Notes: generated by a model from the letters alone, not told the origin. A stretch of DNA of 64,000 nt from Candidatus Nanohaloarchaea archaeon (GCA_042218075.1 JBDGRK010000022.1:12897-76896), one strand, 5' to 3'; numbered from the stretch's first letter, positions 25,676 to 52,402 are shown. Translations and numbers: made by a program.

Positions 25676-25733
25676 AAGCGATGCGGCGTCAGCCGCATGG
25701 CTTATTGCGTGCCCACTCAGCGTAACGAGTGGG
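25676..25733 (-). repeat. tRNA-associated structured element, copy 1 (trailer of tRNA-Val)
   Basis: Minus strand ACTCGTTACGCTGAGTGGGCACGCAATAAGCCATG-hairpin-CATCGCTT; related copies at 51958-52010 and 52252-52364. Confidence 0.75.
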
Positions 25734-25895
25734 TTCGCCCGGATTTGAACCGGGGATCTCCGCCACTCCGACCGCGAAGCTGATCCTCTATTCGTCGAAA
25801 CTCTCAGGTTCTTCGAGTTTCTCAGCCTCACATCTCGCCGACGGCGAGAAGTTCGGGTGTCAAGGCGGTGTCATAACCAGCTAGACCACGAACCC
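25730..25895 (-). tRNA. tRNA-Val(GAC) with 92-nt BHB intron at 37/38 (25766-25857)
   Basis: Acceptor GGGTTCG/CGAACCC, anticodon stem CCGCC/GGCGG, T loop TTCAAAT; BHB central helix TTGA/TCGG. Confidence 0.9.
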
Positions 25896-25980
25896 CAACC
25901 GACTTAAGACTGGTGTTTCCGGATTTTCGAGTTAGGCTTAAATAATTGGGAATCAATGGTTTATTGTGGAGGACAGTTTG

Positions 25981-26130
25981 ATGGTTTCATGCGAGAACTG
26001 TGGAAGAGACCTGAACGTTGACAAGGTTGAAAAACCAGAGGTTGACTGGGTTAAGGTTGTCTGCAGCGAATGCGGAGAAGTGAAGAATATCTCAATGGTC
26101 AGGCTGTCCGCTAATGCGAGGACGAAATAA
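25981..26130 (+). CDS. Small zinc-finger protein (two CxxCG motifs)
   Basis: Manual translation MVSCENCGRDLNVDKVEKPEVDWVKVVCSECGEVKNISMVRLSANARTK; below ORF-track cutoff. Confidence 0.7.
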   Translation: MVSCENCGRDLNVDKVEKPEVDWVKVVCSECGEVKNISMVRLSANARTK

Positions 26131-26181
26131 TCTGTATTCAAAGTTGTTTTAAATTTAGCAGTGGAGTTCTTATTTGATAAC

Positions 26182-26715
26182 ATGGTAAACAAGTGGCAGG
26201 ACTACGAGACAGGTCCGAACCCTCCAGAGGAAATCTACGCAGTGGTTGAAAATCCTGAAGGAACGCAGAATAAGTACGAATATGATAAGGAGAAGGAGTC
26301 AGTTGTTCTGGATCGTGTTCTATACGCTTCTATAAACTATCCGGGCGACTACGGCTTCATCCCGAGAGCATACTACGAGGACGGGGATCCAATGGACATC
26401 CTTGTGCTGACAACTCATTCCACCTTCCCCGGCTGCGTGATAGAGGTCAGGCCTGTCGGAATTCTCTACATGGACGATGACGGAGAGCAGGACGACAACA
26501 TCATCGCGGTTCCGACGGAAGATCCGAGGTGGAACAATATCCAGGATCTTGATGATGTGAACGAACACAGAAAGAAGGAAATCGCCGAGTTCTTCCGGAC
26601 CTACAAGAACCTGGAGCCGAATAAAGAAGTCGAGATCGAGGGATGGGGAGGAAAGGAAGAGGCCCATGAAGCCATCGAGAGAAGCCAGGAGCTGTACAGG
26701 GAGGAATTCTATTAA
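26182..26715 (+). CDS. ppa: Inorganic pyrophosphatase (family I)
   Basis: NKYEYDK, LDRVL, YPGDYGFIP, EDGDPMD, EFFRTYKNLE. Confidence 0.95.
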   Translation: MVNKWQDYETGPNPPEEIYAVVENPEGTQNKYEYDKEKESVVLDRVLYASINYPGDYGFIPRAYYEDGDPMDILVLTTHSTFPGCVIEVRPVGILYMDDDGEQDDNIIAVPTEDPRWNNIQDLDDVNEHRKKEIAEFFRTYKNLEPNKEVEIEGWGGKEEAHEAIERSQELYREEFY

Positions 26716-27119
26716 TGTTCAGTATAGACTATGATGAACTTTCAGACGAGACCCTGAGTTTTGCCCGAGAGCTTCATCGATACTCGACTGAAGCCGCAAA
26801 TTTGCTTGAAGAGAGCGGGGAAAGTGATCCAGAATACAATCCACTCAAAAAGGCCAGAAATCTCCTTAAACAGGATGCGGGAGAGTTTTTCGGACAACCA
26901 GGAGATGAGACAGTTGCAGAAATGCTGGTCGATGACCCGGATGAACTACTTGGATACTACCGGGAATTGGAGGAAGATATAGAGTACATTAAAAATTCTG
27001 GATCAGGATATGAACCTCCTTCAGCTGTAGAGTCCTCAGTCGAAAGGAGGCTTGAAGCCCTCGCGGAAATGACTTTCAACCTTGTTCAGACTCAGGGAAT
27101 CTCAGCTACCGGTGCTTGA
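26715..27119 (+). CDS. Acidic hypothetical protein
   Basis: Coupled to ppa stop (TAATG). Confidence 0.6.
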   Translation: MFSIDYDELSDETLSFARELHRYSTEAANLLEESGESDPEYNPLKKARNLLKQDAGEFFGQPGDETVAEMLVDDPDELLGYYRELEEDIEYIKNSGSGYEPPSAVESSVERRLEALAEMTFNLVQTQGISATGA

Positions 27120-27908
27120 GTACCTTCCCAGGCCAAACCTCCAGAACCTGTAACTTATGTAGAAGAATAGAGGTCCGGCGAGAGGAAGAATGACCTGCCA
27201 GAGCTCCTGACCTTCTTTACCTAGGATGAAGGAGGCAGGAAAAATTGTTGCGAATGCGAGCGGAACAAGGGTTACGAGAAGGGCCTGTACCGCTATACCG
27301 AAAATCTCGAACGGATATTTTCTGAAGTTGCTCATCCTGAAGAGCAGCCAGACCGCACTTCTCGAGGTTCCGGTCCAGAACGCGGTAGAGGAGAACAGAA
27401 GATAAATCGATCCCATGATCAGAATCCCACTCCCCAACGATAGACCTGCGTAGATAAGTTTTATGAGTCCAACTTCAAGTCCAAGCTGAAGTGAAGCGTA
27501 GATAACGAGTGCGATGTTTGCGATGATCTTGGGCAGGTTGCTGTCCCTTATGTTATCCGCGTAAACCTGGAAGAGAGGATCAAGAGGTCTTACCAGGAAG
27601 CGATCGAAGTCTCCCGTCAGGATGTAGTCTTCTCCGATCCGGGTGGCATTATATAGGAAAACATTGTGAGTGAAGACGACCACACCACCGAATCCGGAAA
27701 GGAAGAGCATCTCATTGAAGCTCCAGCCGTTCAGCGATTCTATCTGGGTGAAGACCAGTGTCAGGAAGATCAGAGATACTGACACACTCGTCAGGTGAGC
27801 AGTAGTACCGAGAAGGAAGTCTTTCTTGTAGACCAGTCGAGATTTCCAGTACTGCCTGAAGTAGAGCCAGTAGATACCTACATACTTACCGATCTCCTCT
27901 CTATTCAT
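27102..27908 (-). CDS. ABC-2 family permease (DUF990-like)
   Basis: GW...E, GDFDRFLVRPLDPL, YP..IF, YSSTGS end. Confidence 0.87.
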   Translation of the reverse strand: MNREEIGKYVGIYWLYFRQYWKSRLVYKKDFLLGTTAHLTSVSVSLIFLTLVFTQIESLNGWSFNEMLFLSGFGGVVVFTHNVFLYNATRIGEDYILTGDFDRFLVRPLDPLFQVYADNIRDSNLPKIIANIALVIYASLQLGLEVGLIKLIYAGLSLGSGILIMGSIYLLFSSTAFWTGTSRSAVWLLFRMSNFRKYPFEIFGIAVQALLVTLVPLAFATIFPASFILGKEGQELWQVILPLAGPLFFYISYRFWRFGLGRYSSTGS

Positions 27909-27911
27909 ACA

Positions 27912-28691
27912 TCAACCACCCTGCACCGTCAGTTTCTTCTTGGCTTTTTTCCAGAGAACCTGGCTGAACAAGAGCAGGAAACCAATCCAGAATAGCTGGA
28001 TCGCAAACACGGATAGAACGCCCTGAGAACTTCCTAAATAAATGGAGATAGGTGCGTCAACTAGAGAGGGAAAAGGAGTCAACCGGAAAAAACGGACAAT
28101 ATTTTCCGGTATCAGGTAGAGGGGTATCATCGCACCTGATAATAAAGCTGTAACCATAAACCTGATCATCCTCAGGCTGTTGCCTATCTTGGTCCAGAAA
28201 ACCAGCATCGAGGTGGTGTAGGAGAGTAGTATCACGAGGTTGAGGCTCAGAAATACAGAAAGAAAGAACATTAACCCCGAAGAGGGGAGGCCGATGCCGA
28301 GCACTAGAATAGCCGCAGTGACTGCAGGAATCCCTCTAGTCACGATCTTGAAACTGGACTTCCCGAGCTGGTAGAAGTAGAGCTGCAAACCAAGCGAGGC
28401 CGGCTTCTTCAGCTCATTCACTATAGTTCCCTTCCTGACTCTTTCACCAACCCAGGATTCAATATCCGCGGAAGTTGAACTGTTGATGACCTGCGCCAGC
28501 GCTACATAGGCAATGATAGAGGAGAAAGGCTGGGCTAGCTCCCCTGAAGCTGCTATAGCCCTCCATACATAGTAGAAAAGAACAAGCGAGATGAAGGTCG
28601 CGAAGACACCGGAGACAGCGTTAGCCCTGTACTGGAGGCCTTCCCGCAGTCCGACTCTGAAAAATGAGAGGTACTTTAGGGGTTTCATCAC
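27912..28691 (-). CDS. ABC-2 family permease (DUF990-like)
   Basis: YRAN, VRKG.I..EL.KP, LSGAMIPL, VQGG end. Confidence 0.87.
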   Translation of the reverse strand: MMKPLKYLSFFRVGLREGLQYRANAVSGVFATFISLVLFYYVWRAIAASGELAQPFSSIIAYVALAQVINSSTSADIESWVGERVRKGTIVNELKKPASLGLQLYFYQLGKSSFKIVTRGIPAVTAAILVLGIGLPSSGLMFFLSVFLSLNLVILLSYTTSMLVFWTKIGNSLRMIRFMVTALLSGAMIPLYLIPENIVRFFRLTPFPSLVDAPISIYLGSSQGVLSVFAIQLFWIGFLLLFSQVLWKKAKKKLTVQGG

Positions 28692-29668
28692 AGACCCTCG
28701 TTGTAGATGTGCTTTACCACTGCCTCAATGTCCGGCTCCTTTATCTGGAAATCTATCACATCGTATTCTTCCAGGACCTCCCTCATCAGCTCTGAGGCGG
28801 AGATCTTTTCGCGATCGAAGACTATCTCTATCCTGGCATCCTCCTTCTCGACCTTTTCGATTCCATCCATCTCCAGATCGAAATCCTCTCCATTCCTGAC
28901 ATCCAGTATCAGCCTCCTGGAAGTGAACCGATTCACAAGTGCATCCAGCTCTCCATCGTATATCTTCTCCCCCTGGTCGAGAACCACGATCCTATCGCAC
29001 AGGTCCTCGATATCATCTATGTCGTGGGTGGTCAGCATCACCGTGATATCCTTCTCCTGGTTCATCTTCCGTATGAAGTCCCTTATCCTCTCCTTCACCG
29101 CGACATCGAGACCGATCGTGGGTTCATCAAGATAGGCGATCTTGGGATGGTGGAGAAACGCGGCCGCAAGCTCGCATCTCATCTTCTGCCCCAGGCTCAG
29201 CTTTCTCACCGGCTGGTCCCAGAAATCCGAAAGCTGGAGAACCTCGTCGAACTCGTCAATCCTCTGCTCGTAATCCTCATCCTCAACCTCGTATATCTCT
29301 TTCAGGAGCTTGAACGATTCCCTTACAGGTAGATCCCACCACAGCTGGGTCTTCTGGCCGAAAACCACGCCGATATTCATCGCGTTCTTCTTCCTCTGTT
29401 TGTTAGGATCCCTGCCGTCGACCTCGATTCTTCCAGAACTCGGCTCGAGAATACCTGTAAGCATCTTGACCGTCGTGGACTTTCCCGCACCGTTAGCACC
29501 GATGTAGCCGATCATCTCTCCCTCCTCTATCTCAAAGTCAAGATCTTCAACTGCTTGAACCTCCTCGTATTCCCTCGAGATGAAGGACTTCAGGTATCCT
29601 CTAATTCCCTCCCCTCTCTGGTAGATTCGGAAAGTCTTATCCAGGTTTTCAGCTTCAATTAAGCTCAT
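28688..29668 (-). CDS. ABC transporter ATP-binding protein
   Basis: GANGAGKST, VFGQKTQLWWDLP, LSLGQ, LDEPTIGLD, TTH. Confidence 0.94.
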   Translation of the reverse strand: MSLIEAENLDKTFRIYQRGEGIRGYLKSFISREYEEVQAVEDLDFEIEEGEMIGYIGANGAGKSTTVKMLTGILEPSSGRIEVDGRDPNKQRKKNAMNIGVVFGQKTQLWWDLPVRESFKLLKEIYEVEDEDYEQRIDEFDEVLQLSDFWDQPVRKLSLGQKMRCELAAAFLHHPKIAYLDEPTIGLDVAVKERIRDFIRKMNQEKDITVMLTTHDIDDIEDLCDRIVVLDQGEKIYDGELDALVNRFTSRRLILDVRNGEDFDLEMDGIEKVEKEDARIEIVFDREKISASELMREVLEEYDVIDFQIKEPDIEAVVKHIYNEGL

Positions 29669-29693
29669 AAAGATTTAGCAAAAACAGAGCTTT

Positions 29694-29999
29694 TTAGTGG
29701 TACTCGTAGACTTCATCTTCCAGTTCCTTAAGTAAACTATCTAAGGCATCGCCTTCTCCGAAAAACTCGAATTTTTTATCTCTGTAGAAAGCGTAGAAAG
29801 TTCCCTCTTCAGATCTATATCTATAGAAATCAACATCAGCTTCATTAAGATCCCTGAGTTTCACATCAATTTCTATCTCATTAGGTTCAATCTCATCTAT
29901 ATCGTAATTAACAATTAGGAGATTCATCAAGTCATCCAGTCCATCAGTTCCTATTTCGACTGAAACATGGTAATAGTCATCTCCAACTCTAATGCTCAT
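29694..29999 (-). CDS. Acidic hypothetical protein
   Basis: ATGA overlap with helicase stop. Confidence 0.6.
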   Translation of the reverse strand: MSIRVGDDYYHVSVEIGTDGLDDLMNLLIVNYDIDEIEPNEIEIDVKLRDLNEADVDFYRYRSEEGTFYAFYRDKKFEFFGEGDALDSLLKELEDEVYEYH

Positions 30000-31633
30000 T
30001 CTTCCACCGTAACTGGAACACCCTTCTCCTTAAGGTGCTCGACCTGTCTCTTCACGAAATCCTCCTCATTGGAGCCTTTGGTTGCGACGATGTAGACCTG
30101 CGCATCACCGAAAGGCCTCATCACCCTCCCGGCTCTCTGGGTCGCCTGCCTCCTGGATCCTCCCTGTCCCGAGGCGATTATGCCGACTTCAGCGTCGGGA
30201 AGGTCAAGTCCCTCATCTCCGATCCTGGAGACGATTATCGTGTCCTGCTCTCCCTGCCTGAACTTCTCGAAGTAATCCTCCCTTTCCTCGAAATCTGTCT
30301 CGCCAGATACGAAAGGAAGGTCGAACTCCTCCGAGAGCTGCTCCCCTTGATCCAGCCAGTCGCAGAAGATGATAGTCTTCTCTTCCTCGTGTTTCTCCAG
30401 TATCGACTCGATCTCAGGGATCTTCGCCGGATTTTTTGAGGCTATTATTGCCTTCTTGAAGCCCGATGCCTCGTTGTACTTGTTCCTGTAGAAGTCGCTC
30501 TCCCATTCAACCAGCTGGATCTCCACGTCCGGCTTCAGAACGTACTCCTGGTTGAAGAAGCGGGCCCAGTCTCCTCCTATCTCCTGGCCTATCAGCGCGA
30601 AAATCTCCTTCTCCTTGTTGTCCTCCCTCACAGGCGAGGCGGAAAGACCTACCCTTCTAGTCGACTGGAGGTTCGCAGTTTTTGAGAACAGCGAGCTCGG
30701 GATGTGGTGGACCTCGTCGTAGATTATCAGCCCCCACTCCCTCCTGAATAGCGAGGTCTTCTCTCCCGCCATGTGGTACGTCGCTATAGTCACATCCTTC
30801 ATGTTCTTCTCGTCGCCGTGGAACTCGCCGATCTGGTCCTCAGTTAGAGTTGTCTTGTCCAGTAGTTCGCGCCTCCACTGTCCCACTAGAGATCTCTGCG
30901 GCACAAGTATCAGGGTTGGAGAATCGATCCTCGCCATCAACCCGATCGCGGTTACTGTCTTTCCTGAACCTGCGGGGTTTGCAAGCACCGCGGCCTTCTT
31001 CTCATGCGCCCGATCCACGTATTCCTCCTGGTAGTCCCTCAGATCCACTTTGAGATCCGCTCCTATACTCCTGTCGACATCCCTGAACCTGGAGTTGTCC
31101 TCCACGGGATAGCCCTTTTTCAGCAGTACTTCCTTGATCTTGGCTCTGGACTTAGCTCCCATCGCGATCCTTGACTTGGTGTCTGAGAGATCCACTGCCA
31201 GGTTTTCTCTTACGTCTTCGATACCTCTCGCCCACTCCATCCTCTCCGGGTCAGAGGAGACCAGAGAGTGATAAGTTCCCTCATGTTCAATTGAGAAAAC
31301 TTCCTGCCTCTCGTAGGTCCTCTCGAGCCAGTTCAGGAAGTTCGGATAGTTGCCGAGTATTCGAGTATATATTTCCTTCATCTCCTCCAGGGAGAGGTCG
31401 GAGTTCCATACATCCATTTGTTTGACGCGGAACTTGTAGTGGTCGCCGGAAGAGGTGTCGAGGTGCGCTATCCCCGACATCTCGCTCAGCGTCTCCTCGT
31501 CCGGGTTCGTCAGAATTATCTCGCGCTGGGGTTCGAAGAATACAGCTCTCTCATCTTCAATTTCGTTCTCCAGCTCATTTATCCTTTCAATCAGTTCTTC
31601 CTTCGGCATCGATTCAAGATCTTCCTCGGGCAT
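29996..31633 (-). CDS. xpb: XPB/Rad25-family SF2 DNA helicase
   Basis: LRDYQ, PAGSGKT, DEVH, GLSASPVRED (RED motif), QRAGRVMRP. Confidence 0.9.
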   Translation of the reverse strand: MPEEDLESMPKEELIERINELENEIEDERAVFFEPQREIILTNPDEETLSEMSGIAHLDTSSGDHYKFRVKQMDVWNSDLSLEEMKEIYTRILGNYPNFLNWLERTYERQEVFSIEHEGTYHSLVSSDPERMEWARGIEDVRENLAVDLSDTKSRIAMGAKSRAKIKEVLLKKGYPVEDNSRFRDVDRSIGADLKVDLRDYQEEYVDRAHEKKAAVLANPAGSGKTVTAIGLMARIDSPTLILVPQRSLVGQWRRELLDKTTLTEDQIGEFHGDEKNMKDVTIATYHMAGEKTSLFRREWGLIIYDEVHHIPSSLFSKTANLQSTRRVGLSASPVREDNKEKEIFALIGQEIGGDWARFFNQEYVLKPDVEIQLVEWESDFYRNKYNEASGFKKAIIASKNPAKIPEIESILEKHEEEKTIIFCDWLDQGEQLSEEFDLPFVSGETDFEEREDYFEKFRQGEQDTIIVSRIGDEGLDLPDAEVGIIASGQGGSRRQATQRAGRVMRPFGDAQVYIVATKGSNEEDFVKRQVEHLKEKGVPVTVEE

Positions 31634-31719
31634 GCCACTCCTGTTGTAGGACAAATCTTAAATTGTTGGATTCAGAGAACTCTGGCATCCATCTGAGAAT
31701 AATCAGTTAAAAATCCCTT

Positions 31720-32057
31720 CTACTCATTCATTCCTTGGATGTAATCCTGAACTGCGTTCACAACTTGGTCATCTCTTCCAGTCTAGCACCAAGTTTCTTA
31801 TCGATTATATCGTTGTCAGAAAGACTGGCGAAGATATCGCTCAAATCCTCTCCCCTTGGCATGTTTTCCGCCGCAGGGATATTATTCCCAATATCGATCG
31901 AGGCCTCCACAGCTTCCTGCAGAGAATGTTTTACTGCCTGTCTACGCTCAAAAGAATCATTAAATTCCTCTTTTCCAGCATTATCTACCTTCGAAAGATA
32001 TGAAAGCTGTTCGTTGATTATATCAATCTTTCTTTCCACAACATCACGATCTATCAT
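31720..32057 (-). pseudogene. HepT/DUF86 HEPN RNase toxin with internal deletion
   Basis: LQEAVEASIDIG..., ARLEEMTK then stop; RNxLVHxY motif absent; C-terminal VNAVQDYI in a shifted frame. Confidence 0.8.
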
Positions 32058-32448
32058 GCCCTAACCGACCTCCTCAGTCGATTATAATCATCAAAGAAAT
32101 GTTTGTAATCATCATACCGGCGGTAAACATTAGTTTCAAAATTCACCCTTTCTCTCTCATCATCGACGTAAACAGGCTCTCCATTGCTTATCACCTGGTG
32201 CTGGAAGACGACATCAGAATCATTCAGCACCGATAGATCAACTTCCTTGTCAATCAGTTTCTCAAGCTCTATAAAAATACGGCTGAGCTGGCGGGGCTTC
32301 AGGCTTTCCTCAACAAAAATAGCAATATCAAGATCGCTACCCTCGTGACCGGTTCCCTTCAGGAGAGAACATGGGCGTAAGCCAACAGTACTTCATCGTA
32401 TTCACTCATGATGCGGGAAATATTTTCTCTCAGGTTTTCCAGATTCAT
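32054..32448 (-). pseudogene. MntA/MNT nucleotidyltransferase antitoxin, frameshifted near 32370
   Basis: Restoring one G gives AYAHGSLLKGTGHEGSDLDIAIF...VDLSVLN...VISNGEPVY. Confidence 0.82.
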
Positions 32449-32596
32449 ACTATAGCTTAGCTCCAGAAATATAAAAGAATGAAACCAATCTCTCCGGTAA
32501 GTCATTACTGCTATAGCAGAAATCCTAAATTGTTGAGTCAAGAGAATCTCCGGAGGTTCCGTTACTGATTTATATTCTGGAGTTCAATTCTACTTC

Positions 32597-32857
32597 ATGG
32601 CTGAAACTGTTGGAAAAGAGACCGAAGTTACTGATGAAGGCGAAATGAGCGGCCCCAGGATAGAGGGTAAAAGGGTTAGAGTTAGCGACATTGCGGTCCG
32701 CTACAGGAGAGGTGAGAGCCCGGAAGAGATAGCGGAGAGATTTCCCGGTCTTGAGCTTTCCGAGGTGCATTCAGCGCTCTCCTACTATCACAGTCACAGG
32801 GAAGAGGTGGAGAAGGAGATTGATAGAAGGGAGCATAAATTTGAGAAATACAGTTAA
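32597..32857 (+). CDS. DUF433 antitoxin
   Basis: GPRIEGKRVRVSDI, GESPEEIA..FP.L, V.SALSYY..H.EE. Confidence 0.9.
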   Translation: MAETVGKETEVTDEGEMSGPRIEGKRVRVSDIAVRYRRGESPEEIAERFPGLELSEVHSALSYYHSHREEVEKEIDRREHKFEKYS

Positions 32858-32866
32858 GTGGTGGTT

Positions 32867-33184
32867 ATGGATTTTCTGCTTGATCACCACATCGACCCTG
32901 CTGTCGCTGAAGGCTTGAAATCCAGGGGTCAAAGGGCAAAGACTCTCTGGGATGAAGATCTACACGAGAATGGTGACGTGGATTTAGTGGATTACGCGAA
33001 TGAGAGAAATATGATTCTCGTAACCAACGATGACGATTTTCTTACAATAATAGACTCAGGCAGAAAGCATTCAGGTATAGTATTCATAACAGAGCAGCAG
33101 ATGCCTGTCGGAGAAATGATAAGAGGAATAATATCGGAGACAAGAAAGTGGGAAAAACCTGACGGCAGCATAGCCTTCGTCTGA
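32867..33184 (+). CDS. DUF5615 PIN-like toxin
   Basis: FLLDHHI, D.DL, ILVTNDDDF, HSGIV. Confidence 0.87.
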   Translation: MDFLLDHHIDPAVAEGLKSRGQRAKTLWDEDLHENGDVDLVDYANERNMILVTNDDDFLTIIDSGRKHSGIVFITEQQMPVGEMIRGIISETRKWEKPDGSIAFV

Positions 33185-33196
33185 CTGGCTGCGGAA

Positions 33197-33460
33197 CTAC
33201 CTGCTTTCTAATTTTTCGATTATTTTCTCTCCCTTTCCAGTTCTCCTGTAAAGTCTTCCATGCTTGTCGTCAGGGTTCAGGAGCTCGACCATGTTTTTCT
33301 CCCTGAGTTCGTTCAGGGCTCGGCTGACGTGAGACTGGTGCATGCCAGTGATCTTCGCGATTTCGCTGGGCATCAACTCTTCCTCGAGAGATCCAAGGGC
33401 TTTCCTCCTCTGTTCCGATCTCTTCACAAAAGAAACGTCGCTCCATTCTATATCTTCCAT
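33197..33460 (-). CDS. Winged helix-turn-helix regulator (ArsR/MarR-like)
   Basis: PSEIA......SHVSRAL.EL, GRLY..T.KG. Confidence 0.85.
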   Translation of the reverse strand: MEDIEWSDVSFVKRSEQRRKALGSLEEELMPSEIAKITGMHQSHVSRALNELREKNMVELLNPDDKHGRLYRRTGKGEKIIEKLESR

Positions 33461-33569
33461 GCCGGGAAATTAGTTACCTGTCTTGACTTGGAATTCTACC
33501 AGAAAGCTACCATTTTCATACCAGAATCCTCGAATCCAGATTCATTAAGATTCAGGAGAAGTTGACGAT

Positions 33570-44442: not shown

Positions 44443-44485
44443 TTTACTCCAACCAGATTTAAACGAGAGGATTCAATCTTTCTGC

Positions 44486-45613
44486 ATGAGAGTTAAATCG
44501 ATAAGGCTGAGGGAGATCATAGATTCAAGGACCAAACCCACTGTAGAGGCGGAAGTAAACGGGGAATTGGGAAAAGCACCTTCAGGAGCTTCCACTGGAA
44601 GGCACGAGGCGGAGGCGTTTGTTCCGAAGAACCTGGATTCAATCCAGGATAGATTGAGGAATCTGGAGGGAAGAGACCTGACCCAGGAAGAGTTCGACCA
44701 GGAACTGAGGGATATTGACGGTAATGAAAAGTTCTCCAAAATAGGATCGGTTGCAGTTGCCTCAAGCTTCGCTTTCAAGAACGCTTCAGGATTCGACCAC
44801 TCGAAGAAGTTTCCTCTTCCCCTGAGCAATATTATAGGCGGGGGAGAGCACGGAGGCAACACCAGCATACAGGAGTTTCTCGTGCTGCCGGTGAACGCTG
44901 AAAGCTTTCCCGAGGCAGTCAGGACGAACACCGCGATCTACCAGGAGCTGAAGCAAAGGTACAGTCAGAAAGTGAAAGGAATAAACGATGAAGGCGCACT
45001 TATAACCTCCATGGATGATGAGCAGACCCTTAAAGCCCTGAAGAAAGTCGCTGACGGTCATAAAGCCAGGATAGGCCTGGACATCGCTGCTTCAGAATTC
45101 TTCCAGGAAGAAACAGGTAAATACCACCTGAACTCAATAGGAGAAGAATTCGAGCCTGAAGGGCAGCTTGATTTCGTGGAAAAACTGATACAGAGATTCG
45201 ATCTTGTCTACGTGGAGGATCCATTCCATGAAGATGATTTCCGGAATCACGCCAGGCTGAGGAGTAAGCACCCCGAAGTCCTTGTAACCGGCGACGATCT
45301 TTTTGTGACGCAGGAAGAAAGGCTGAAGGAGGGGATAGAGAACAGATCCGGTAACTCGCTGATCGTAAAGCCGAACCAGGTCGGCACTGTTAGCGATGCG
45401 AGGGAGACGGTGGAACTGGCGAAGGAAAACGATTACACTCCCGTAATATCTCACAGATCTGGAGAGACATGCGACCACACTATCTCGGACCTGGCACTTG
45501 AGTGGGAGTGTCCGATAATCAAGGCAGGTATAGCCGACATCAGGATCGCGAAGCTGAACCGCCTTACCAGTCTCTGGGACAGGATTAACGAACCGAAGAT
45601 GAACAACTTCTGA
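44486..45613 (+). CDS. eno: Enolase
   Basis: DSR..PTVE, PSGASTG..EA, GLDIAASE, EDPF, GDDL, SHRSGET. Confidence 0.94.
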   Translation: MRVKSIRLREIIDSRTKPTVEAEVNGELGKAPSGASTGRHEAEAFVPKNLDSIQDRLRNLEGRDLTQEEFDQELRDIDGNEKFSKIGSVAVASSFAFKNASGFDHSKKFPLPLSNIIGGGEHGGNTSIQEFLVLPVNAESFPEAVRTNTAIYQELKQRYSQKVKGINDEGALITSMDDEQTLKALKKVADGHKARIGLDIAASEFFQEETGKYHLNSIGEEFEPEGQLDFVEKLIQRFDLVYVEDPFHEDDFRNHARLRSKHPEVLVTGDDLFVTQEERLKEGIENRSGNSLIVKPNQVGTVSDARETVELAKENDYTPVISHRSGETCDHTISDLALEWECPIIKAGIADIRIAKLNRLTSLWDRINEPKMNNF

Positions 45614-45644
45614 ATTTTTTAACCTTTGCATAAGTTTTAGACAT

Positions 45645-46076
45645 ATGGGTTCCGAAGTGGTTGGATCAAAAAACAATCCGATTATCGACAAGTTTGATCT
45701 TGAAGTTGATGAAGATGAGGCTGATGATGATGAGCCAGCTGCTGAAGTGAGAGATGAAGTAGAAAGTTTTGTTAACCAAATAGAGGAAGAATTATTTGAT
45801 GATGAAGTAGAAATTTTGGAAAAAGGAAATCAAAATTTTACACATTATAGAATCAATAAACCGTCATCAGGACTCTATGAATGCATAAGGGATATTTACG
45901 AAAGATTCTTCGAGAAAGACAAGGAAGCCGACTATCTATCTTTGAAGGTTAACTACTTCGAAGGTGATAAAAGCGTAATGATGACCATGACCCTGGTATA
46001 TCAGAATGATCTGGAATGGAGTCAAAAGGGAGATATAAGACAGATAGCAACGAATTATTTCGAGAACACTGATTGA
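45645..46076 (+). CDS. Acidic hypothetical protein
   Basis: AT-richer ORF between eno and rps2. Confidence 0.6.
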   Translation: MGSEVVGSKNNPIIDKFDLEVDEDEADDDEPAAEVRDEVESFVNQIEEELFDDEVEILEKGNQNFTHYRINKPSSGLYECIRDIYERFFEKDKEADYLSLKVNYFEGDKSVMMTMTLVYQNDLEWSQKGDIRQIATNYFENTD

Positions 46077-46141
46077 TACCTAGATTTCGATCGCCCTTAA
46101 ACTATAGACCTTATTTAATATTTGCTCTGGAACACCTCTCT

Positions 46142-46750
46142 ATGACTGATGAAGAACTTTTGATCGACCGGGAAGAGTATCTCTCGCATGGAGCACATAT
46201 TGGAACCCAGGCGAAGCACAGCGACATGGAAAAATACATCTTTCACGTCAAAAAGAACCAGCTGGCGGTACTGGATCTTAACCAGACAGACGATAGGGTA
46301 AGAAGTGCCGCGAAGTTCCTGGCGAACTACGATTCTGAAGAGATACTCGTGGTTGGAAGAAAGGATGCTGCCAGAAAACCAATCAAGGCTTTCTCGGAAG
46401 AGCTTGAAACCCGGCTAATTGCGGGAAGATTTATGCCCGGAACACTGACCAATCCACAGTCGGACGATTTTATTGAGCCCGAGGTCGTGATCGTGACCGA
46501 TCCGGAGGAAGACGCGCAGGCCATAGATGAGGCTGTAGACGCCCGTATTCCGGTACTGGCGATAGCAGACTCAGGAAACAGTTTGCAGGATGTCGATCTT
46601 GCAATTCCTGCAAACAACAAGGCGGAAAACTCTTTGGGGATAATCTACTACCTGCTAGCGCAGCAGATTAAAGATGAGAAAGGAGAGAATTTCACAGCCG
46701 AAAAGTCGAAATTCCGGCCTGAACCGGACGATGAAAGCGAGGAAGAATGA
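46142..46750 (+). CDS. rps2: 30S ribosomal protein S2
   Basis: YL..G.HIGT, GRFMPGTLTNP, DP..D.QAI.EA, IPANNK. Confidence 0.95.
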   Translation: MTDEELLIDREEYLSHGAHIGTQAKHSDMEKYIFHVKKNQLAVLDLNQTDDRVRSAAKFLANYDSEEILVVGRKDAARKPIKAFSEELETRLIAGRFMPGTLTNPQSDDFIEPEVVIVTDPEEDAQAIDEAVDARIPVLAIADSGNSLQDVDLAIPANNKAENSLGIIYYLLAQQIKDEKGENFTAEKSKFRPEPDDESEEE

Positions 46751-47289
46751 CGGAATTTCTAGTGATAGTAGGCGCCTCCAGGGATGGCAGAAAGACTGTT
46801 CACGCGGCAGAATTCCTCAGGCAAATTCTAACCGAAAAGGGAGAGAAGGTAGAGTTCTTCGATCTGAAAAAGAAACAAATACCCTTCCTCAACTCAAGAA
46901 CATATACAGATCCGGGAGAAGCACCTGAAAACGCACAGCTTCTATCAGAAAAAGTCAAAGAGGCGGATTGCGTAGTGATAGTGACACCGGAGTATAACCA
47001 CTCGATACCGGGGGTTCTAAAGAACGCTATAGATCATCTGTACCCAGAGTACGACGACAAGCCTTTCGCATACGTTACTACTTCCGCGGGAGGTTTCGGG
47101 GGTGTAAGAGGTCTATCCCACCTCCACGACATCACCATAGCTATCGGTGGACATCCGGGTCCGAGCCTGAACGTATCCAGGATAGGCGAAGTGTTCGGTG
47201 AAGAAGGAGAACTAAAGGATGAAGACTACAGGGAGAGATTCAAGGATTTTGTCGATAAAATGAAAGAGCACGCCGAGAAAATGGACTAG
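46747..47289 (+). CDS. NADPH-dependent FMN reductase
   Basis: GASRDGR, TPEYNHSIPGVLKNAID, S.G.FGG.R. Confidence 0.92.
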   Translation: MTEFLVIVGASRDGRKTVHAAEFLRQILTEKGEKVEFFDLKKKQIPFLNSRTYTDPGEAPENAQLLSEKVKEADCVVIVTPEYNHSIPGVLKNAIDHLYPEYDDKPFAYVTTSAGGFGGVRGLSHLHDITIAIGGHPGPSLNVSRIGEVFGEEGELKDEDYRERFKDFVDKMKEHAEKMD

Positions 47290-47432
47290 CGGGATAGTAA
47301 GGTCTTTACATCTTTCTGATTCCATGGAGACCGGGATGAGGGCCAGTGACCTAACGATAAGGAGAAACAGCAAACTCCAGCACCAGACAGGTTAACATTT
47401 AAAGAGAGCAGAGACAATCTACAACTGAAAAG

Positions 47433-48029
47433 ATGTTCGGCTTCGGCGGAGACGAGAAAGACAAACTGGAAGAGAACATGAAGGAGATCAAAGACCTGAT
47501 AGAGAGCCATGGAGAAAACGATGAGAAGGATGAAAAGATAGAAGAATCGGGGCAGGAGTTAGAAGAAGGGCAGAAGAAAGATTTTGCGGCTGAATCACTG
47601 GATATTGATACAGGAGAACAGCAGGATTCCGGACAGGCTACCGGCTCGAAAATGCCGGGTCCGGATGAAGAGGTACAGGATGGGCAGTTCCGGTTTGATC
47701 AGACAGGTGAAAATAATGAACAGGAGCATCAAAAAAGATCGAATCCGAGATCGGGTTTGAGGGACAAAGTACCTGAACCGCCGGAGACCAAGAAGCTTAA
47801 CGTACCTGAAATCGATAAGGGACCGCTTTTTATCAGGAAGGGAAAGTTCAGGTCCGCCAAGCAGATGATTGACGAGATGCAGTATCTATCCAGTGAGATA
47901 GAGCAGGTCATGAACCAGCTAGAGGCCGGTATTGAGGAGGACAGAAATATGGAGAGCGATGCGAGAGAACTTCTCCAGAGGCTGGAAAGCGACAGGGGGG
48001 AAATAAAGGACATAATATCGCAGAAGTGA
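47433..48029 (+). CDS. Hypothetical protein (acidic linker, coiled-coil C-terminus)
   Basis: PLFI..F...I C-terminal helix; host-like codon usage. Confidence 0.7.
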   Translation: MFGFGGDEKDKLEENMKEIKDLIESHGENDEKDEKIEESGQELEEGQKKDFAAESLDIDTGEQQDSGQATGSKMPGPDEEVQDGQFRFDQTGENNEQEHQKRSNPRSGLRDKVPEPPETKKLNVPEIDKGPLFIRKGKFRSAKQMIDEMQYLSSEIEQVMNQLEAGIEEDRNMESDARELLQRLESDRGEIKDIISQK

Positions 48030-48035
48030 TTTGAT

Positions 48036-48263
48036 ATGGATAGAAAAGAGATTCTGGAGTACCTGGAGCAGTACCGGGATGCGCATTCTTCCAAGAAACT
48101 TCTAAAGCTCCTGAAAGCAGAGCTCGTTAAAGAGATGGAACAGATGGAGGTTTCAACGGACAAGCACAGGCACGACCTAAACCTGTTGATCAGGGACCTG
48201 GAGGAAGAACTGGACTACATAGAGTCGGAGAAACTTTCACAGTTCGACCCCGAGCAACAGTAG
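48036..48263 (+). CDS. Hypothetical protein
   Basis: 75-aa ORF in apparent operon. Confidence 0.6.
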   Translation: MDRKEILEYLEQYRDAHSSKKLLKLLKAELVKEMEQMEVSTDKHRHDLNLLIRDLEEELDYIESEKLSQFDPEQQ

Positions 48264-48272
48264 TTCTGGAAC

Positions 48273-48911
48273 ATGAGCAGAGTTGCCTTCATTCTACCCG
48301 GATACCTCTCATCCACAGATGAAGAAAACTACCAGAGAGTCGCCGAAATTTACAGGCAATCAAGTTTCCAAGTGGAGAAGCTCGATATAGAATGGGAGAA
48401 AGACTTCTGGAATAACTGCAATAAGGTCAAGAATTTAATCGAAAAAAGAAGGGAGGAGTATGATTCTCCCGAAACCCATTTCTTCGGCCATTCATGGGGC
48501 TCCGCGGTACTTTTGACTATCTCACCTAATTTCAATCCGAAGACCCAGGTGCTTGCCTCACTTTCACCAGATTTCAAGGAAGACGACGAGCACTATTTCT
48601 ATCTCTGGAAGAAGCTGGCACCGGTCTTTCAAATCTTGCTGAGCCCTTTCTACGATATTCCGGAAGAACTGGATGAAAGACCCTCACTGGAAGAAAAAGG
48701 AGACAAGATCGAAAGCGATCTATACCTCATCTATGGTGAAAGAGAATACAATGGATTTATGGATATAAGTTCTCTCGGAATGGGTGGAAAAATAACCGAG
48801 AACAGGAGGCAAATATTGGACTGTGAAGAAATTATTGTGAAGGGAGCGACTCACTCGATGACATCGGATCACTATATTGAGCAAATAGAAGAGATTGTAG
48901 CAAAACTGTAA
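48273..48911 (+). CDS. Alpha/beta hydrolase
   Basis: ILPGY, GHSWG nucleophile elbow, IYGE.E, GATH. Confidence 0.8.
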   Translation: MSRVAFILPGYLSSTDEENYQRVAEIYRQSSFQVEKLDIEWEKDFWNNCNKVKNLIEKRREEYDSPETHFFGHSWGSAVLLTISPNFNPKTQVLASLSPDFKEDDEHYFYLWKKLAPVFQILLSPFYDIPEELDERPSLEEKGDKIESDLYLIYGEREYNGFMDISSLGMGGKITENRRQILDCEEIIVKGATHSMTSDHYIEQIEEIVAKL

Positions 48912-48953
48912 ACAGGCTCGCTTGGTATAAAAAAGTTCTTTCCCTCTTGTATG

Positions 48954-48981
48954 CACAGGCCTTGATGATCAAGGTTTTGTG
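48954..48981 (+). promoter_or_regulatory. Hairpin with TGATGA in the rpl7ae leader (candidate L7Ae autoregulatory element)
   Basis: CACAGGCCTTGA-TGA-TCAAGGTTTTGTG stem-loop ending 16 nt before the ATG. Confidence 0.4.
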
Positions 48982-48997
48982 AAAGGTGTTAACAAAG

Positions 48998-49372
48998 ATG
49001 GCATACCAGAAATTTGAAGCTTCGGATTCGCTCGCGGAAAAAACCTACAACGCTATTGAGGATGCTGACGATACGGGCAAGGTCGTCATCGGTACTAACG
49101 AAGTGACAAAGGCTATAGAGAGGAATGAGGCAGAACTTGTGGTTATCGCCTCCGATGTATCGCCTGAAGAGATAGTCATGCACCTTCCCGCTCTCGCCGA
49201 GGAGAAAGACATAGCATATACCTTCGTCCCGGACAAGGAAGAGCTAGGTCTGGCAGCAGGAATTAACGTACAGAGCGCTGCTGTAGCGATAACTTCGGTT
49301 GGAAACGCGGAAGACGATATCGACGATATCAAGCTAAAAACAAGGGAACTCCTGGACAAGGACGAAGAATAG
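48998..49372 (+). CDS. rpl7ae: 50S ribosomal protein L7Ae
   Basis: GTNEVTKAIER, IA.DV.PEEIV.HLP, K.ELG.AAGI.V. Confidence 0.96.
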   Translation: MAYQKFEASDSLAEKTYNAIEDADDTGKVVIGTNEVTKAIERNEAELVVIASDVSPEEIVMHLPALAEEKDIAYTFVPDKEELGLAAGINVQSAAVAITSVGNAEDDIDDIKLKTRELLDKDEE

Positions 49373-49385
49373 GTGATCGTCTAGA

Positions 49386-49562
49386 ATGGTTGCTGCCAAG
49401 GTGGTTGAAGTTATTGGAGAGCAGGGACATCGGGGAGTTAGAAAAGTTCGCTGCAGGATCCTGGAGGGAAGCGAGGAAGGAAAGATTCTTGTGAGAAACG
49501 CCAGGGGACCTATAAGAGAGGATGACGTGGTCCACATAAAGGAGACCGAGATGGAAGGGTGA
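49386..49562 (+). CDS. rps28e: 30S ribosomal protein S28e
   Basis: Manual translation MVAAKVVEVIG...VRCRILEG...RNARGPIREDD...ETE; follows rpl7ae. Confidence 0.9.
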   Translation: MVAAKVVEVIGEQGHRGVRKVRCRILEGSEEGKILVRNARGPIREDDVVHIKETEMEG

Positions 49563-49568
49563 TCGAGA

Positions 49569-49718
49569 ATGGAGTGTGAATACTGCGGAGAAGAACTCGA
49601 TAAGACGAAGGGAAAGATGGTTGTTCTCTCTTCAGGAGAAAAACTACATTTCTGCTCCGGGAAATGCGAGAAGAACTGGAGGAAGAACAGGAGCCACGAC
49701 TACCAGAATAAGGAGTGA
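49569..49718 (+). CDS. rpl24e: 50S ribosomal protein L24e
   Basis: Manual translation MECEYCG...GKM.V...G...FCSGKCEKN. Confidence 0.92.
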   Translation: MECEYCGEELDKTKGKMVVLSSGEKLHFCSGKCEKNWRKNRSHDYQNKE

Positions 49719-49782
49719 TGCCTGAATTTCATCCTTCTATATTTAACTTTCATCTACCTATATCCAGTAAAGGTGAGAAGAA

Positions 49783-51537
49783 ATGCCCCGCCAGCCGATT
49801 CTGTCAGTCCTGGGTCATGTGGATACCGGAAAAACGACGTTATTAGACTCTATCAGGGAATCAAGGATAACCGAGGGCGAGGAAGGCGGTATCACGCAGA
49901 TGATAGGTGCGACAGAGGTTCCTCTCGAGACCGTGGAGGAAGTATGCGGAGATCTACTCGAGCAACTTGACACCAAAATCTCCATACCTGGCCTCCTTTT
50001 CATAGACACTCCTGGTCACGCAGCTTTCTCCTCTCTCAGGAAGAGAGGAGGCTCGATATCAGATATCGCAGTGCTTGTAATTGGTATTACAGAGGGAATA
50101 CAGCCACAGACACAGGAAGCACTGAACATTCTGCAGGAATCTGATACACCGTTCGTCATCGCATTAAACAAGATCGACACTCTGCACGGCTGGAGCTCCA
50201 ATCACCAGCTATTCTCTAGGAACATAAGAGAGCAGAACGAAAGGAACAGGAACGCACTGGACGATAGCATCTACGAGCTTATGAGCGATCTTCACGAAGA
50301 AGTGGGGGTAACCGCTGACCGTTTCGACAGGATCGACGATTTCAGGAAGAAGGTGGCCATTATTCCGACCTCCGCAAAGACTGGTGAAGGCATACCTGAA
50401 CTGCTGATGGTCGTGACAGGTCTCGCACAGAACTACCTTGAGGAGAACCTGGAGATCCACGAGGGTATGGGAAGAGGAACTATCCTGGAAACCTCCGAGG
50501 AGAAAGGACTAGGAACCACTATTGATGTAATTCACTACGACGGGACGATTGAAAAGGAAGATACCCTTGTTTTCGGAACGGCCCAGGGAGTAAAAACTAC
50601 AGAGATTAGGGCTTTGATGGAGCCCAGACCCCTGGAGGAAATAAGACTTGATGAAAAATACGAGAGAGTGGAGAAACTGGAGCCGGCATCCGGTGTGAAG
50701 ATAGCGGCCAATGATCTGGAGGGAGCTATTGCAGGAGCACCTGTCAGGACTGTTTCAGGCCAGGATTCGGATGAAGCCGAGAGAGAGGTAAAGGAAGAGC
50801 TGCACTCTGTAGAATTCGAGACTCAAAATGAAGGAGTGGCAGTAAAGGCCAATTCACTCGGATCTCTTGAAGCGGTGATGAGAGAGCTTGAAGAAATCAG
50901 CGCCAAGAAGGCTGAAGTCGGCAAGATTACAAAATCAGATATAATAGAGGTAGAACAGGAGAAACCTGAATACAGGGCGATACTGGCCTTCAATACTAAA
51001 GTGACGGATCAGGCGAGAGAAATTGCAAGGAAGAAAGAAGTGAAGATCTTCCAGAGCAAGGTTATCTACGAGATTGTGGAGAGCTACGAGGACTGGAAAA
51101 AAGATCTGGAGCAGCAAAAAAGAAAGAAAGCTCTCGCGAGCGTTTCCCGTCCGGCCAAATTCAGGGTCATGCACGACCACGTGTTCAATTCTTCGAAACC
51201 TGCGGTTGTCGGAGTGAAAATTTTGGAAGGCGTGCTTACCGCGGGAAGCTCTGTAATGACAATAGGTGGCGACTCAGTGGGGAAGATAAAGAGCGTGCAG
51301 GCGGATAACGAGACACTGGAAAAGGCGGAAAAAGGAGAAGAAGTGGCGGCTTCTATCTCAAAGGCTACAGTAGGAAGAGACTTTGAAGAAGGCGATGAAT
51401 TGATTGTTAACCTCTCCGGGAGAGAGTACCGCCAGTTGCAGGAGCTTGAAGACTTATTGCACGAGGATGAGAAAAACGTTATGAGAGAAATAGTAGAGAT
51501 AAAAGACAACCAGGATCCGCACTGGAAGATAGGTTGA
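49783..51537 (+). CDS. infB: Translation initiation factor aIF5B (IF-2)
   Basis: RQPI..VLGHVDTGKT, GGITQ.IGA, IDTPGH, NKID, LGSLEA. Confidence 0.96.
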   Translation: MPRQPILSVLGHVDTGKTTLLDSIRESRITEGEEGGITQMIGATEVPLETVEEVCGDLLEQLDTKISIPGLLFIDTPGHAAFSSLRKRGGSISDIAVLVIGITEGIQPQTQEALNILQESDTPFVIALNKIDTLHGWSSNHQLFSRNIREQNERNRNALDDSIYELMSDLHEEVGVTADRFDRIDDFRKKVAIIPTSAKTGEGIPELLMVVTGLAQNYLEENLEIHEGMGRGTILETSEEKGLGTTIDVIHYDGTIEKEDTLVFGTAQGVKTTEIRALMEPRPLEEIRLDEKYERVEKLEPASGVKIAANDLEGAIAGAPVRTVSGQDSDEAEREVKEELHSVEFETQNEGVAVKANSLGSLEAVMRELEEISAKKAEVGKITKSDIIEVEQEKPEYRAILAFNTKVTDQAREIARKKEVKIFQSKVIYEIVESYEDWKKDLEQQKRKKALASVSRPAKFRVMHDHVFNSSKPAVVGVKILEGVLTAGSSVMTIGGDSVGKIKSVQADNETLEKAEKGEEVAASISKATVGRDFEEGDELIVNLSGREYRQLQELEDLLHEDEKNVMREIVEIKDNQDPHWKIG

Positions 51538-51543
51538 TAAGAT

Positions 51544-51906
51544 ATGCCTGATTATCTCTCCAAAGTTTACCAGCTCCAGAAACTGGATGGGCTCATGGGA
51601 GATTCTGAGGCGGATACAATTAAATTCCAGTCAAGAGTCACAAGCGATTTATCGTCTAATTACGGAAGAGTAAACCTAGATAGAGAAATTATAGGAGATT
51701 CGTATTCACCGGACGAGGGGTCGACCATCATGAATGGAAGAGTTGGAAATGTCAGAGTTCTAATGGAGGCAAACCATGAAAAGGAAGAAGTATATCTTAT
51801 TACTGAAGAGGATGAGAGCGATGAAAGTGATCTTGGAGAACTGGATAAAATTTTCTCAGAGTTCATTGAAAAGTGGAATTCTACCTATATAGCTAGTAGA
51901 TATTGA
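51544..51906 (+). CDS. Acidic hypothetical protein
   Basis: AT-richer ORF ending at the third tRNA-Ala 3' repeat. Confidence 0.55.
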   Translation: MPDYLSKVYQLQKLDGLMGDSEADTIKFQSRVTSDLSSNYGRVNLDREIIGDSYSPDEGSTIMNGRVGNVRVLMEANHEKEEVYLITEEDESDESDLGELDKIFSEFIEKWNSTYIASRY

Positions 51907-52106
51907 ACCGGCTGGGATGTGAGAACACCGAACTTCAGAAAGTTCGATCATCAGAATGCATGGGTCCGGGAGACCCATGCCTTGCGTACCAACTCAGCGT
52001 AACGAGTTGGACCGGCTGGGATTTGAACCCCTCGAAAATCAAAGATTTTCTGCGAGGCTATCAAATCCTGTGAAGGGAATGGTTGGACCGGCTGGGATTT
52101 GAACCC
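51904..52106 (-). repeat. Three direct copies of the tRNA-Ala 3' end (51904-51922 degenerate, 52008-52030, 52084-52106)
   Basis: Plus strand TGGACCGGCTGGGATTTGAACCC twice and TGAACCGGCTGGGATGTGA once. Confidence 0.85.
51958..52010 (-). repeat. tRNA-associated structured element, copy 2 (trailer of duplicated tRNA-Ala 3' end)
   Basis: Minus strand ACTCGTTACGCTGAGTTGGTACGCAAGGCATG-hairpin-CATGC. Confidence 0.75.
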
Positions 52107-52402
52107 AGGGCCTTCTCCTACCTATGACGAAACGCTCCGACCTCTGTCGAAAACTCCAGAGGAGTTTTCTCGACTCGCAGAAACCCTTTCGGGTTTCGAG
52201 TGGGTCACCTGCGGTCCATTCCAGCAAAGCTGGAATCCACAGGTTATCCAAAAGCGATGAGCCCTAGGCTCATGGCTTATTGCGTGCCACTCCAAAATCG
52301 CTTCCAGCGATTTTGTGCGTTCACAGAAACTCCTAACGGAGTTTCGCGAAGAGCGTAACCAGTCGTGCGAGGGAGACGTTCTGCCAGCTGAACTACCGGC
52401 CC
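52084..52402 (-). tRNA. tRNA-Ala(CGC) with 246-nt intron at 37/38 (52120-52365)
   Basis: Acceptor GGGCCGG/CCGGTCC with G3:U70, D arm GTTC/GAAC, anticodon stem TCTCC/GGAGA, T loop TTCAAAT; intron ends pair (GAC/GTC, ACGCTC/GAGCGT); relaxed BHB. Confidence 0.85.

Follow-up and report, generated by a model that had tools for sequence, protein, structure and literature searches.

The stretch of DNA considered here is a window of 64,000 nucleotides from a Candidatus Nanohaloarchaea archaeon (GCA_042218075.1, JBDGRK010000022.1:12897-76896), part of a 1.10-Mb genome of 40 contigs with an estimated completeness of 92% (labelled G000, the contig of the window being C15). Two groups of interrupted tRNA genes lie on its minus strand, and among them three copies of a short non-coding element, hereafter the module, are found: copy 1 follows tRNA-Val(GAC), upstream of tRNA-Met(CAT), copy 2 follows a repeated 3' end of tRNA-Ala(CGC), and copy 3 stands in the intron of the same tRNA-Ala gene (Table 1). 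The three copies have been confirmed to belong to a genuine, phylum-wide family of structured non-coding cassettes of about 60 bases with two hairpins. A first-pass annotation of the window had reported them at positions that agree with ours within 3 nt (25730-25676, 52010-51958 and 52363-52252), with the hairpins as written; its start for copy 1, at 25733, adds the last three acceptor bases of the tRNA, and those bases do pair in the first stem.

On the minus strand the tRNA-Ala locus reads tRNA-Ala, a spacer with a T-loop complement and a hairpin of a second type (the GA-hairpin, described below), repeat 2 of the tRNA 3' end, copy 2, a closing hairpin and repeat 3, so that copy 2 is bracketed by the two tRNA-Ala 3'-end repeats. 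The same repeat-flanked architecture recurs in G000 at tRNA-Ala(GGC), tRNA-Trp and tRNA-Arg, and copy 2 has a near-identical paralogue after tRNA-Ala(GGC) on contig C40. The suspicion that the copies are assembly artefacts is countered by public contigs from two studies, in which copies 2 and 3 are reproduced with 0 differences; one contig of 6173 nt spans copy 3 together with the entire tRNA-Ala, and the stretch 52026-52083 is not bridged by any single contig among those listed.

Table 1. Features of the two tRNA loci of the window, with positions counted from its first letter
Feature	Position	Strand	Evidence
tRNA-Met(CAT), 78-nt intron	25475..25624	-	Rfam tRNA model, 55.3 bits
Extra hairpin in the Val-Met spacer, just 5' of tRNA-Met	25627..25655	-	sequence reading
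Copy 1 (short form), with the final 4 nt of tRNA-Val included in stem a; UUACGC hexaloop, then linker, hairpin c and tail	25668..25735	-	R2, 63.3 bits, E 4e-15; minimum-free-energy fold, z = -3.99
tRNA-Val(GAC), intron of ~94 nt without module	25730..25895	-	Rfam tRNA model, 50.7 bits
Degenerate direct repeat 3 of the tRNA-Ala 3' end	51903..51923	-	sequence reading
Hairpin closing the copy-2 cassette, UGAUGA motif before it	51928..51947	-	fold
Copy 2, short form, directly after repeat 2	51947..52012	-	R2, 37.0 bits, E 6e-8
Direct repeat 2 of the tRNA-Ala 3' end (T-loop through discriminator)	52008..52030	-	sequence reading
8-nt T-loop complement and GA-hairpin (52033-52050), directly 5' of repeat 2	52033..52069	-	fold; pattern scan
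tRNA-Ala(CGC), intron of ~226 nt at position 37/38	52080..52403	-	ARAGORN intron mode; 6173-nt public contig, 0 differences
GA-hairpin, 3' part of the tRNA-Ala intron	52144..52169	-	pattern scan
Copy 3, long form; loop motif, extra hairpins d and e, linker, hairpin c and tail	52244..52365	-	R2, 33.0 bits, E 8e-7; alignment of long forms from six genomes

A covarying family of structured modules

Whole-genome motif and hairpin scans of G000 gave further copies of the module beyond the three of the window. A core covariance model (R1) was built from 13 seed copies and recovers, in G000, all 13 seeds and one weak extra match; it also matches 25 of the 36 other genomes of the same family and none of the 24 genomes outside it. 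A full-length model (R2) was built from 17 copies, copy 1 being the only window copy in its seed. R2 finds 14 distinct places in G000 and, at E <= 1e-5, detects the module in 44 of 70 Nanohaloarchaea genomes, the order-level and phylum-level searches covering the identical 70 genomes; by family (f1 to f5) the matches amount to 34/49, 1/1, 3/10, 5/8 and 0/1. Searches of both window loci with Rfam cmscan at E <= 10 returned only tRNA and noise, with no other family and no ribozyme, and no published description of the module was found among the open-access papers and bioRxiv texts searched, in keeping with the initial impression that the family had not been described.

From its gene-proximal end, which is the same in all context classes, the module consists of stem a (6-8 bp), a linker of the CACGC type, hairpin c and a UYCRGAA tail. 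Hairpin c starts with AAGCC and ends with GGCUU, frequently with a single C-C mismatch. Three types of stem a can be distinguished: type i, to which all three window copies belong, has a G-U closing pair and the hexaloop UUACGC; type ii has the loop UGACGC, which together with the closing G is complementary to the linker; and type iii has a tetraloop and a different linker. The longest loop-linker helix of type ii has a mean length of 5.8 bp vs 3.1 bp in shuffles (9 copies) and would, on steric grounds, be mutually exclusive with stem a, while no such helix is present in type i (2.6 vs 2.7 bp in shuffles, 26 copies). The long form, of which copy 3 is an example, carries in addition hairpins d and e, which keep the sequence of their stems and of the strand that joins them from genus to genus, and a third ACGC motif; its hairpin d is an inverted GA-hairpin.

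The 77 full-length R2 matches served as the set for the covariation, context and nearest-neighbour counts. In their alignment 95.6% of the stem cells are paired vs 73.9% in shuffles, changes on both sides are seen at 14 of the 16 stem pairs, and the covariation score of 0.462 (vs 0.133) was equalled in none of 500 shuffles and drops to 0.07 or less when the 3' partner is slid by 1-3 columns; this alignment was fitted to the structure of the model, which biases the counts in its favour, and a separate hairpin parse gives the same pairing pattern. Both stems covary, which bears out the earlier claims that the second hairpin differs from copy to copy and always pairs, and that the module is non-coding and under selection for structure. 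The proposal that the first stem follows the adjacent tRNA end was also upheld: the outer pairs of stem a (CA/UG, GA/UC or CCCA/UGGG) follow the last bases of the neighbouring gene, that is tRNA positions 72-73, positions 35-37 or the stop codon. As to the strand that is selected, the inverted copies show 14 wobble pairs vs 1 A-C pair, 11 of these 14 being the conserved closing G-U; in the non-inverted copies an A-C occurs at one hairpin-c pair in 10 cases, which blunts this wobble-based test.

Genomic contexts and history of the copies

Context labels were assigned to the 77 copies by reading their flanks. The largest class, 31 copies, forms the 5' part of tRNA introns at position 37/38 (Thr, Arg, Ala, Ile, Lys, Val and Ser), and 19 copies are trailers, which follow immediately on a tRNA discriminator or on a repeated tRNA 3' end; one and the same module thus serves as tRNA trailer and as the beginning of tRNA introns, as first noticed in the window. 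Another 15 copies are inverted, 14 of them abutting a tRNA 5' end and one the ATG of an RFC-like open reading frame (ORF); four stand directly after protein stop codons, including that of the thermosome gene in three genera, one lies within a C/D-box small RNA (sRNA), and seven are found elsewhere. Outside this set, long forms follow the stop codon of EF-1alpha and occur in the 5' untranslated region (UTR) of rpl3. The rule that copies begin at tRNA cleavage sites in sense orientation therefore holds for the three window copies and fails for the family, with its inverted, stop-codon, sRNA and other members. What is shown is that the module abuts the end of an upstream unit, be it tRNA position 37, a discriminator base or a stop codon. 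No pattern of replication-strand bias was apparent by eye in the hit strands of single-contig genomes.

The module-bearing introns of G000 interrupt Ala(CGC), Thr(CGU), Lys(UUU), Arg(GCG) and a gene called Ile(tat) by ARAGORN. Introns of different isotypes share only the module and do not reach 80% identity over the whole intron; agreement over the d and e hairpins unites the long forms of Ala and Thr, and extends to copies from other genera. By hand reading, the Gly(GCC) and Lys(UUU) introns have a canonical bulge-helix-bulge at the exon-intron junctions and the Ala(CGC) intron fits this geometry with two of the four central pairs formed; in several introns bases 35-37 are taken up in stem a, where the bulge-helix-bulge would have them bulged. 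After the tail, a run of at least four T residues (T4+) is found in 7 of the 19 trailers and 3 of the 4 UTR copies, in 6 of the 15 inverted copies and in 4 of the 31 in introns. Upstream of the tRNA genes, the inverted copies might act as promoters: they have a TTATT stretch at -30 to -26 (own count); the usual tRNA promoter box of G000, TTTAAAAG, lies at about -45 to -33, and in one long-form case no box of this kind was in range. As these boxes stand at variable distances, short leaders that need trimming are to be expected, despite the fact that archaeal RNase P RNA (RF00373) had no match in the 92% complete G000.

The GA-hairpin, the partner unit of the module and the more abundant of the two, has a GAA...UUC stem flanked by A or GA and by GA. 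Its strict pattern occurs 62 times in G000 vs 3, 10 and 4 times in three shuffles; many introns of this genome have one close to their 3' splice site, and it also stands directly before repeated tRNA 3' ends. It is shown to abut often the start of the downstream unit, namely a 3' exon, a repeated gene 3' end or a tRNA 5' end. GA-hairpins often come in back-to-back pairs (e.g., C23 104963/104973 and C26 3800/3810). An assignment of the GA-hairpin to the kink-turns (K-turns) was considered and rejected, since its fold, judged by eye, has a 1x2 internal loop and not a 3-nt bulge with tandem G-A pairs.

Comparison with congeners of G000 (G001, G002, G003 and G004, whose aIF5B is 62-76% identical to that of the window) revealed filled and empty sites. 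The thermosome stop codon is followed by a module in G000, G017 and G008 and by nothing in three of the four congeners (G001, G002 and G004; G019 was left out, its match falling short of the true C-terminus). In G003 this place is occupied by a GA-hairpin insert of 36 nt, bounded on either side by a 20-nt copy of the ORF end; the two copies agree at 18 of 20 positions. The trailer of tRNA-Val(GAC) is free of the module in all three congeners in which it was recovered (G002, G003 and G004), and in G004 this tRNA has no intron. The empty orthologous sites that the first-pass annotation had suggested looking for are thus found at the thermosome 3' end and at the tRNA-Val trailer. Stages of decay are also visible: the Arg(GCG) intron has an intact module in G001, a mutated one in G003 and, in G002, a remnant made up of the start, a single hairpin and the tail; G002 has zero R2 matches. 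In the module-free G019 only 3 of 36 tRNA matches exceed 100 nt, and in G000 28 of 37 ARAGORN calls have an intron.

For copies 2 and 3 the comparison is of another kind. tRNA-Ala(CGC) was not recovered in the congeners; the tRNA-Ala genes that were recovered there (GGC or TGC) lack module and repeats, and are intronless in three of four. The 1.4-kb spacer between aIF5B and the next gene (window 51538-52964) contains two small ORFs besides tRNA-Ala(CGC); in six relatives it measures 50-830 nt and has different small ORFs and no tRNA. Since none of these six has a tRNA between aIF5B and the next conserved gene, there is no orthologous site for copies 2 and 3.

Several further observations concern individual units of these mosaics. 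In G004 a hairpin-c-like stem, the motif CAGAUGAUC and a hairpin follow one another at two loci (L116, about 12300-12350, and L127), abutting the 5' ends of tRNA-Val and tRNA-Ala(TGC); this unit is the one that closes the copy-2 cassette of the window. On the minus strand of G000, at C14:46442-46572, three units, each with a hairpin, follow one another in tandem at intervals of about 65 nt. A C/D-box sRNA with the module is present in G001 (L047, about 200-330, minus strand) and G023 (L075, about 190-330, plus strand). Its terminal stem, C box and D box are accompanied by a guide of 12 nt with complementarity to the variable arm of tRNA-Leu, and the module occupies the usual position of the internal C'/D' motif.

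At the tRNA-Val locus, 105 nt separate the end of tRNA-Val from the start of tRNA-Met, with no promoter-like box between them, and hairpins like the one in this spacer also come after the module at L038 and L079. The intron of tRNA-Met, which may be a C/D-type guide intron, contains the conserved box-like motifs GCGAUGAG and GAUGAUUAAA, likewise found at L099 (G002) and L108 (G019); of the three genomes sharing them, G002 and G019 lack the module. With default settings ARAGORN reported none of the tRNAs of the window, because the genes are interrupted, and its intron mode and the Rfam tRNA model were used instead. The intron mode wrongly labels the tRNA-Val(GAC) of the window as Ser(gga), and a doubtful 'tRNA-Pro' that it calls in G000 at C10:54592-54740 has an un-tRNA-like sequence.

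Possible origins of the cassettes

The explanation tentatively preferred here, with a confidence just on the doubtful side, is that the modules and their partner units make up a mosaic of small structured cassettes, similar to the REP/BIME mosaics of bacteria discussed below, which DNA recombination inserts at gene ends and which are kept as introns wherever they can be spliced out. The cassettes would probably arrive by Campbell-type integration, either as small circles or as larger integrative elements that decayed afterwards, each bearing its own copy of the target end. A cassette within the anticodon loop or next to it would be tolerated since the splicing endonuclease excises it, leaving an intron, and at the 3' end it would persist as a trailer; a gene for this endonuclease is present in G000 on contig C10 (PF01974, 94.6 bits). 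The hairpins may be under selection because the recombination machinery reads folded single strands, or because a self-contained fold spares the neighbouring RNA. The match between the outer pairs of stem a and the gene end may arise through templated quasi-palindrome correction of the free arm, which is suggested as a neutral cause because the gene side is constrained. The first-pass annotation had envisaged that the module targets tRNA cleavage sites as an RNA; the signs of mobility, repeats of the target 3' end and filled versus empty sites, are instead of the DNA level, and that part of its proposal finds no support in the form given. Its suggestion that the module offers a route to the birth of tRNA introns is plausible, although no case has been caught in the act.

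Several findings weigh against the preferred explanation. Near-identical copies in different contexts within one genome were not found among the 77 copies: 53 of them have their nearest neighbour in a different genus and a different context, with identities of 67-88%, nearest-neighbour identities being mostly 70-85%, and the seven same-genome nearest neighbours are all segment duplicates. Recent transposition is therefore unsupported by this test. Sites are retained over long periods, the Thr(CGT) intron in at least eight genera, the thermosome 3' end in three and the place upstream of tRNA-Pro in three, with compensatory changes accompanying them, which suggests a function at the level of the host, or else that the same hot spots are used again and again. 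Gain is indistinguishable from loss because the congeners are distant, and the step from insert to intron is a deduction, the introns being without flanking repeats. As for enzymes, the Y1 transposase (PF01797) has 0 matches in the 92% complete G000, in a search whose control was positive in 6 of 14 genomes, and no TnpB was found in G000; Cas1 (PF01867) occurs in 3 of the 70 genomes vs the module in 44. Tyrosine integrases (PF00589) are matched in G000 on contigs C13, C16, C37 and C19 and not on C15, and they are also present in module-free genomes; the statement that the window encodes no mobilising enzyme agrees with the search of its contig, on which integrase, Y1 transposase and TnpB matches number none. 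Two known types of mobile element were considered and dismissed: IS200/IS605 or RAYT, as G000 lacks Y1 transposase and TnpB, and a casposon, prompted by targets at the 3' ends of tRNA and elongation-factor genes, as Cas1 is found in just three genomes.

A second possibility, a serious rival that we nevertheless consider somewhat unlikely, is that the module is a host-functional cis-acting RNA domain, a self-folding platform for protein binding or processing that punctuates transcripts beside splice sites, in trailers before oligo-U terminators, in UTRs of highly expressed genes and in sRNA, so that its distribution reflects need and not mobility. In four families of the phylum sequence and structure are in fact conserved, an ACGC motif stands in the loop, in the linker and again in the long-form junction, and orthologous sites keep the module across genera with compensatory changes. 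The loss or decay of all G002 copies together fits the loss of a trans-acting factor, and the same reading would account for the mutually exclusive second helix of type ii, for T4+ runs that are more frequent in trailer and UTR copies than in intron copies, and for the nature of the host genes (tRNAs, EF-1alpha, the thermosome and an r-protein operon). However, the 15 inverted copies score as high as the sense copies, and for at least some of them it is the reverse complement that must be transcribed, as a leader or intergenic spacer; congener sites are empty without visible replacement and entire genomes are module-free; and neither a K-turn nor another known protein-binding motif was recognised.

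A more specific proposal, and an unlikely one in our judgement, is that the module is the recognised end of a new archaeal non-autonomous cassette, inserted by hairpin-directed recombination at the 3' ends of highly transcribed genes with duplication of the target end, a landing at position 37 giving a spliceable intron. If true, this would represent a live, traceable route of tRNA intron birth.

It is improbable that the cassettes are scars of tRNA-integrating plasmids or viruses, with module and GA-hairpin flanking attP, attL/attR remnants left after deletion of the body, and introns formed by deletion between junctions, as proposed for Caldiarchaeum (PMC3293823). The repeated tRNA 3' ends are indeed ordered as tRNA end, module, GA-hairpin and repeated end, integrase genes adjoin tRNA-Asn and tRNA-Pro, a tRNA-Pro 3' fragment on a second contig lies about 60 nt from a type iii module, and the upstream thermosome repeat of G003 differs at two synonymous sites, as if imported. 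Still, neither an element body nor an integrase was found between the repeats of the pairs examined, whose spacers measure 36-150 nt, and the targets, which besides many tRNAs include the thermosome, EF-1alpha, a C/D sRNA and a 5' UTR, are far more varied than is usual for one integrase family. Dead remnants would not retain their hairpins by compensatory changes, and of five stretches of viral contigs matched by the module pattern none is a module by R1. As separate observations, tyrosine-integrase genes lie just downstream of tRNA-Asn and tRNA-Pro(TGG) in G000 (C13:15284-15784 and C37:3650-4234), and another contig (C23, near 103650) has a 3' fragment of tRNA-Pro whose trailer is that of tRNA-Pro(TGG), which suggests an integrated element linking two contigs.

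Finally, a self-cleaving ribozyme that cuts at its own 5' edge, producing tRNA 3' ends, 5' splice-site cuts and mRNA 3' ends with the 2',3'-cyclic phosphate and 5'-OH termini used by the RtcB ligase, is scarcely credible: the exact start of the module at functional RNA ends, its roughly 25 conserved positions and the non-detection of RNase P RNA in G000 would suit it, but no Rfam ribozyme matches at E <= 10, the supposed core differs among types i, ii and iii, cleavage by the inverted and C/D sRNA copies would be harmful, and stem a pairs with the very bases to be cut.

Comparison with known mobile elements and tRNA introns

The REP (repetitive extragenic palindromic) sequences and BIMEs (bacterial interspersed mosaic elements) are short imperfect palindromes of bacteria, mobilised by RAYT/Y1 enzymes, in which several unit types form extragenic mosaics in both orientations. 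The cassettes described here resemble them as mosaics of palindromic units in both orientations that lie beside genes, are co-transcribed with them and keep their hairpins by compensatory change. They differ in being archaeal, in numbering tens and not hundreds of copies per genome, in the lack of a Y1 transposase in G000, in the presence of units inside tRNA introns as well, and in the long target-end repeats of some inserts. A further parallel is offered by the attC sites of integrons, which are conserved in fold over sequence, follow stop codons immediately and are recognised in the folded single-stranded state. The module is likewise conserved in fold more than in sequence and found directly after stop codons; unlike for attC, cassette arrays were not seen here, and we know of no tRNA or intron contexts for attC sites.

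Among tRNA introns, the closest counterparts come from the Thermoproteales, where intron families common to different tRNA types have been described (PMC4090602; 10.64898/2026.10.13.758758). As in the transposed introns of that group (Fujishima et al. 2010, via PMC4090602), related sequences occur across isotypes in one genome and a DNA-level arrival is assumed; the introns there are of the bulge-helix-bulge type, as those of G000 probably are. In contrast to the Thermoproteales, only a module of about 60 nt is common here, not whole introns; outside introns the module occurs as a trailer, in inverted orientation upstream of genes, within mRNA UTRs and in one sRNA, and its stems covary; and the copies within one genome are about 70-85% alike, with all introns at 37/38 and not at varied positions. 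In Caldiarchaeum subterraneum an integration-based model of tRNA gene disruption has been put forward (PMC3293823), with which the present case shares tRNA fragments and a proposed intron gain tied to integration or recombination at a tRNA gene. The Caldiarchaeum element measures 1.8 kb and encodes a recombinase, whereas the inserts here are of 36-150 nt, gene-free and members of a conserved structured family. Moreover, relaxed splicing endonucleases and disrupted tRNA genes have been reported for DPANN archaea, including one nanohaloarchaeon (PMC5829648).

This family of structured elements is undescribed and has no entry in Rfam, and the genomes that carry it, of about 1 Mb, have little non-coding sequence to spare. 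Insertion events and the fate of the module RNA could be followed directly in co-cultures of cultivated nanohaloarchaea or in strain-resolved metagenomes. According to a recent preprint (10.64898/2026.10.13.758758), the route by which protein-spliced tRNA introns arrive is still open, and the earlier work on intron origin, as far as it is covered there, lacks the combination found here, which may bear on the origin of archaeal tRNA introns: one covariation-supported module both inside introns and at gene ends, with target repeats, filled and empty sites and stages of decay.

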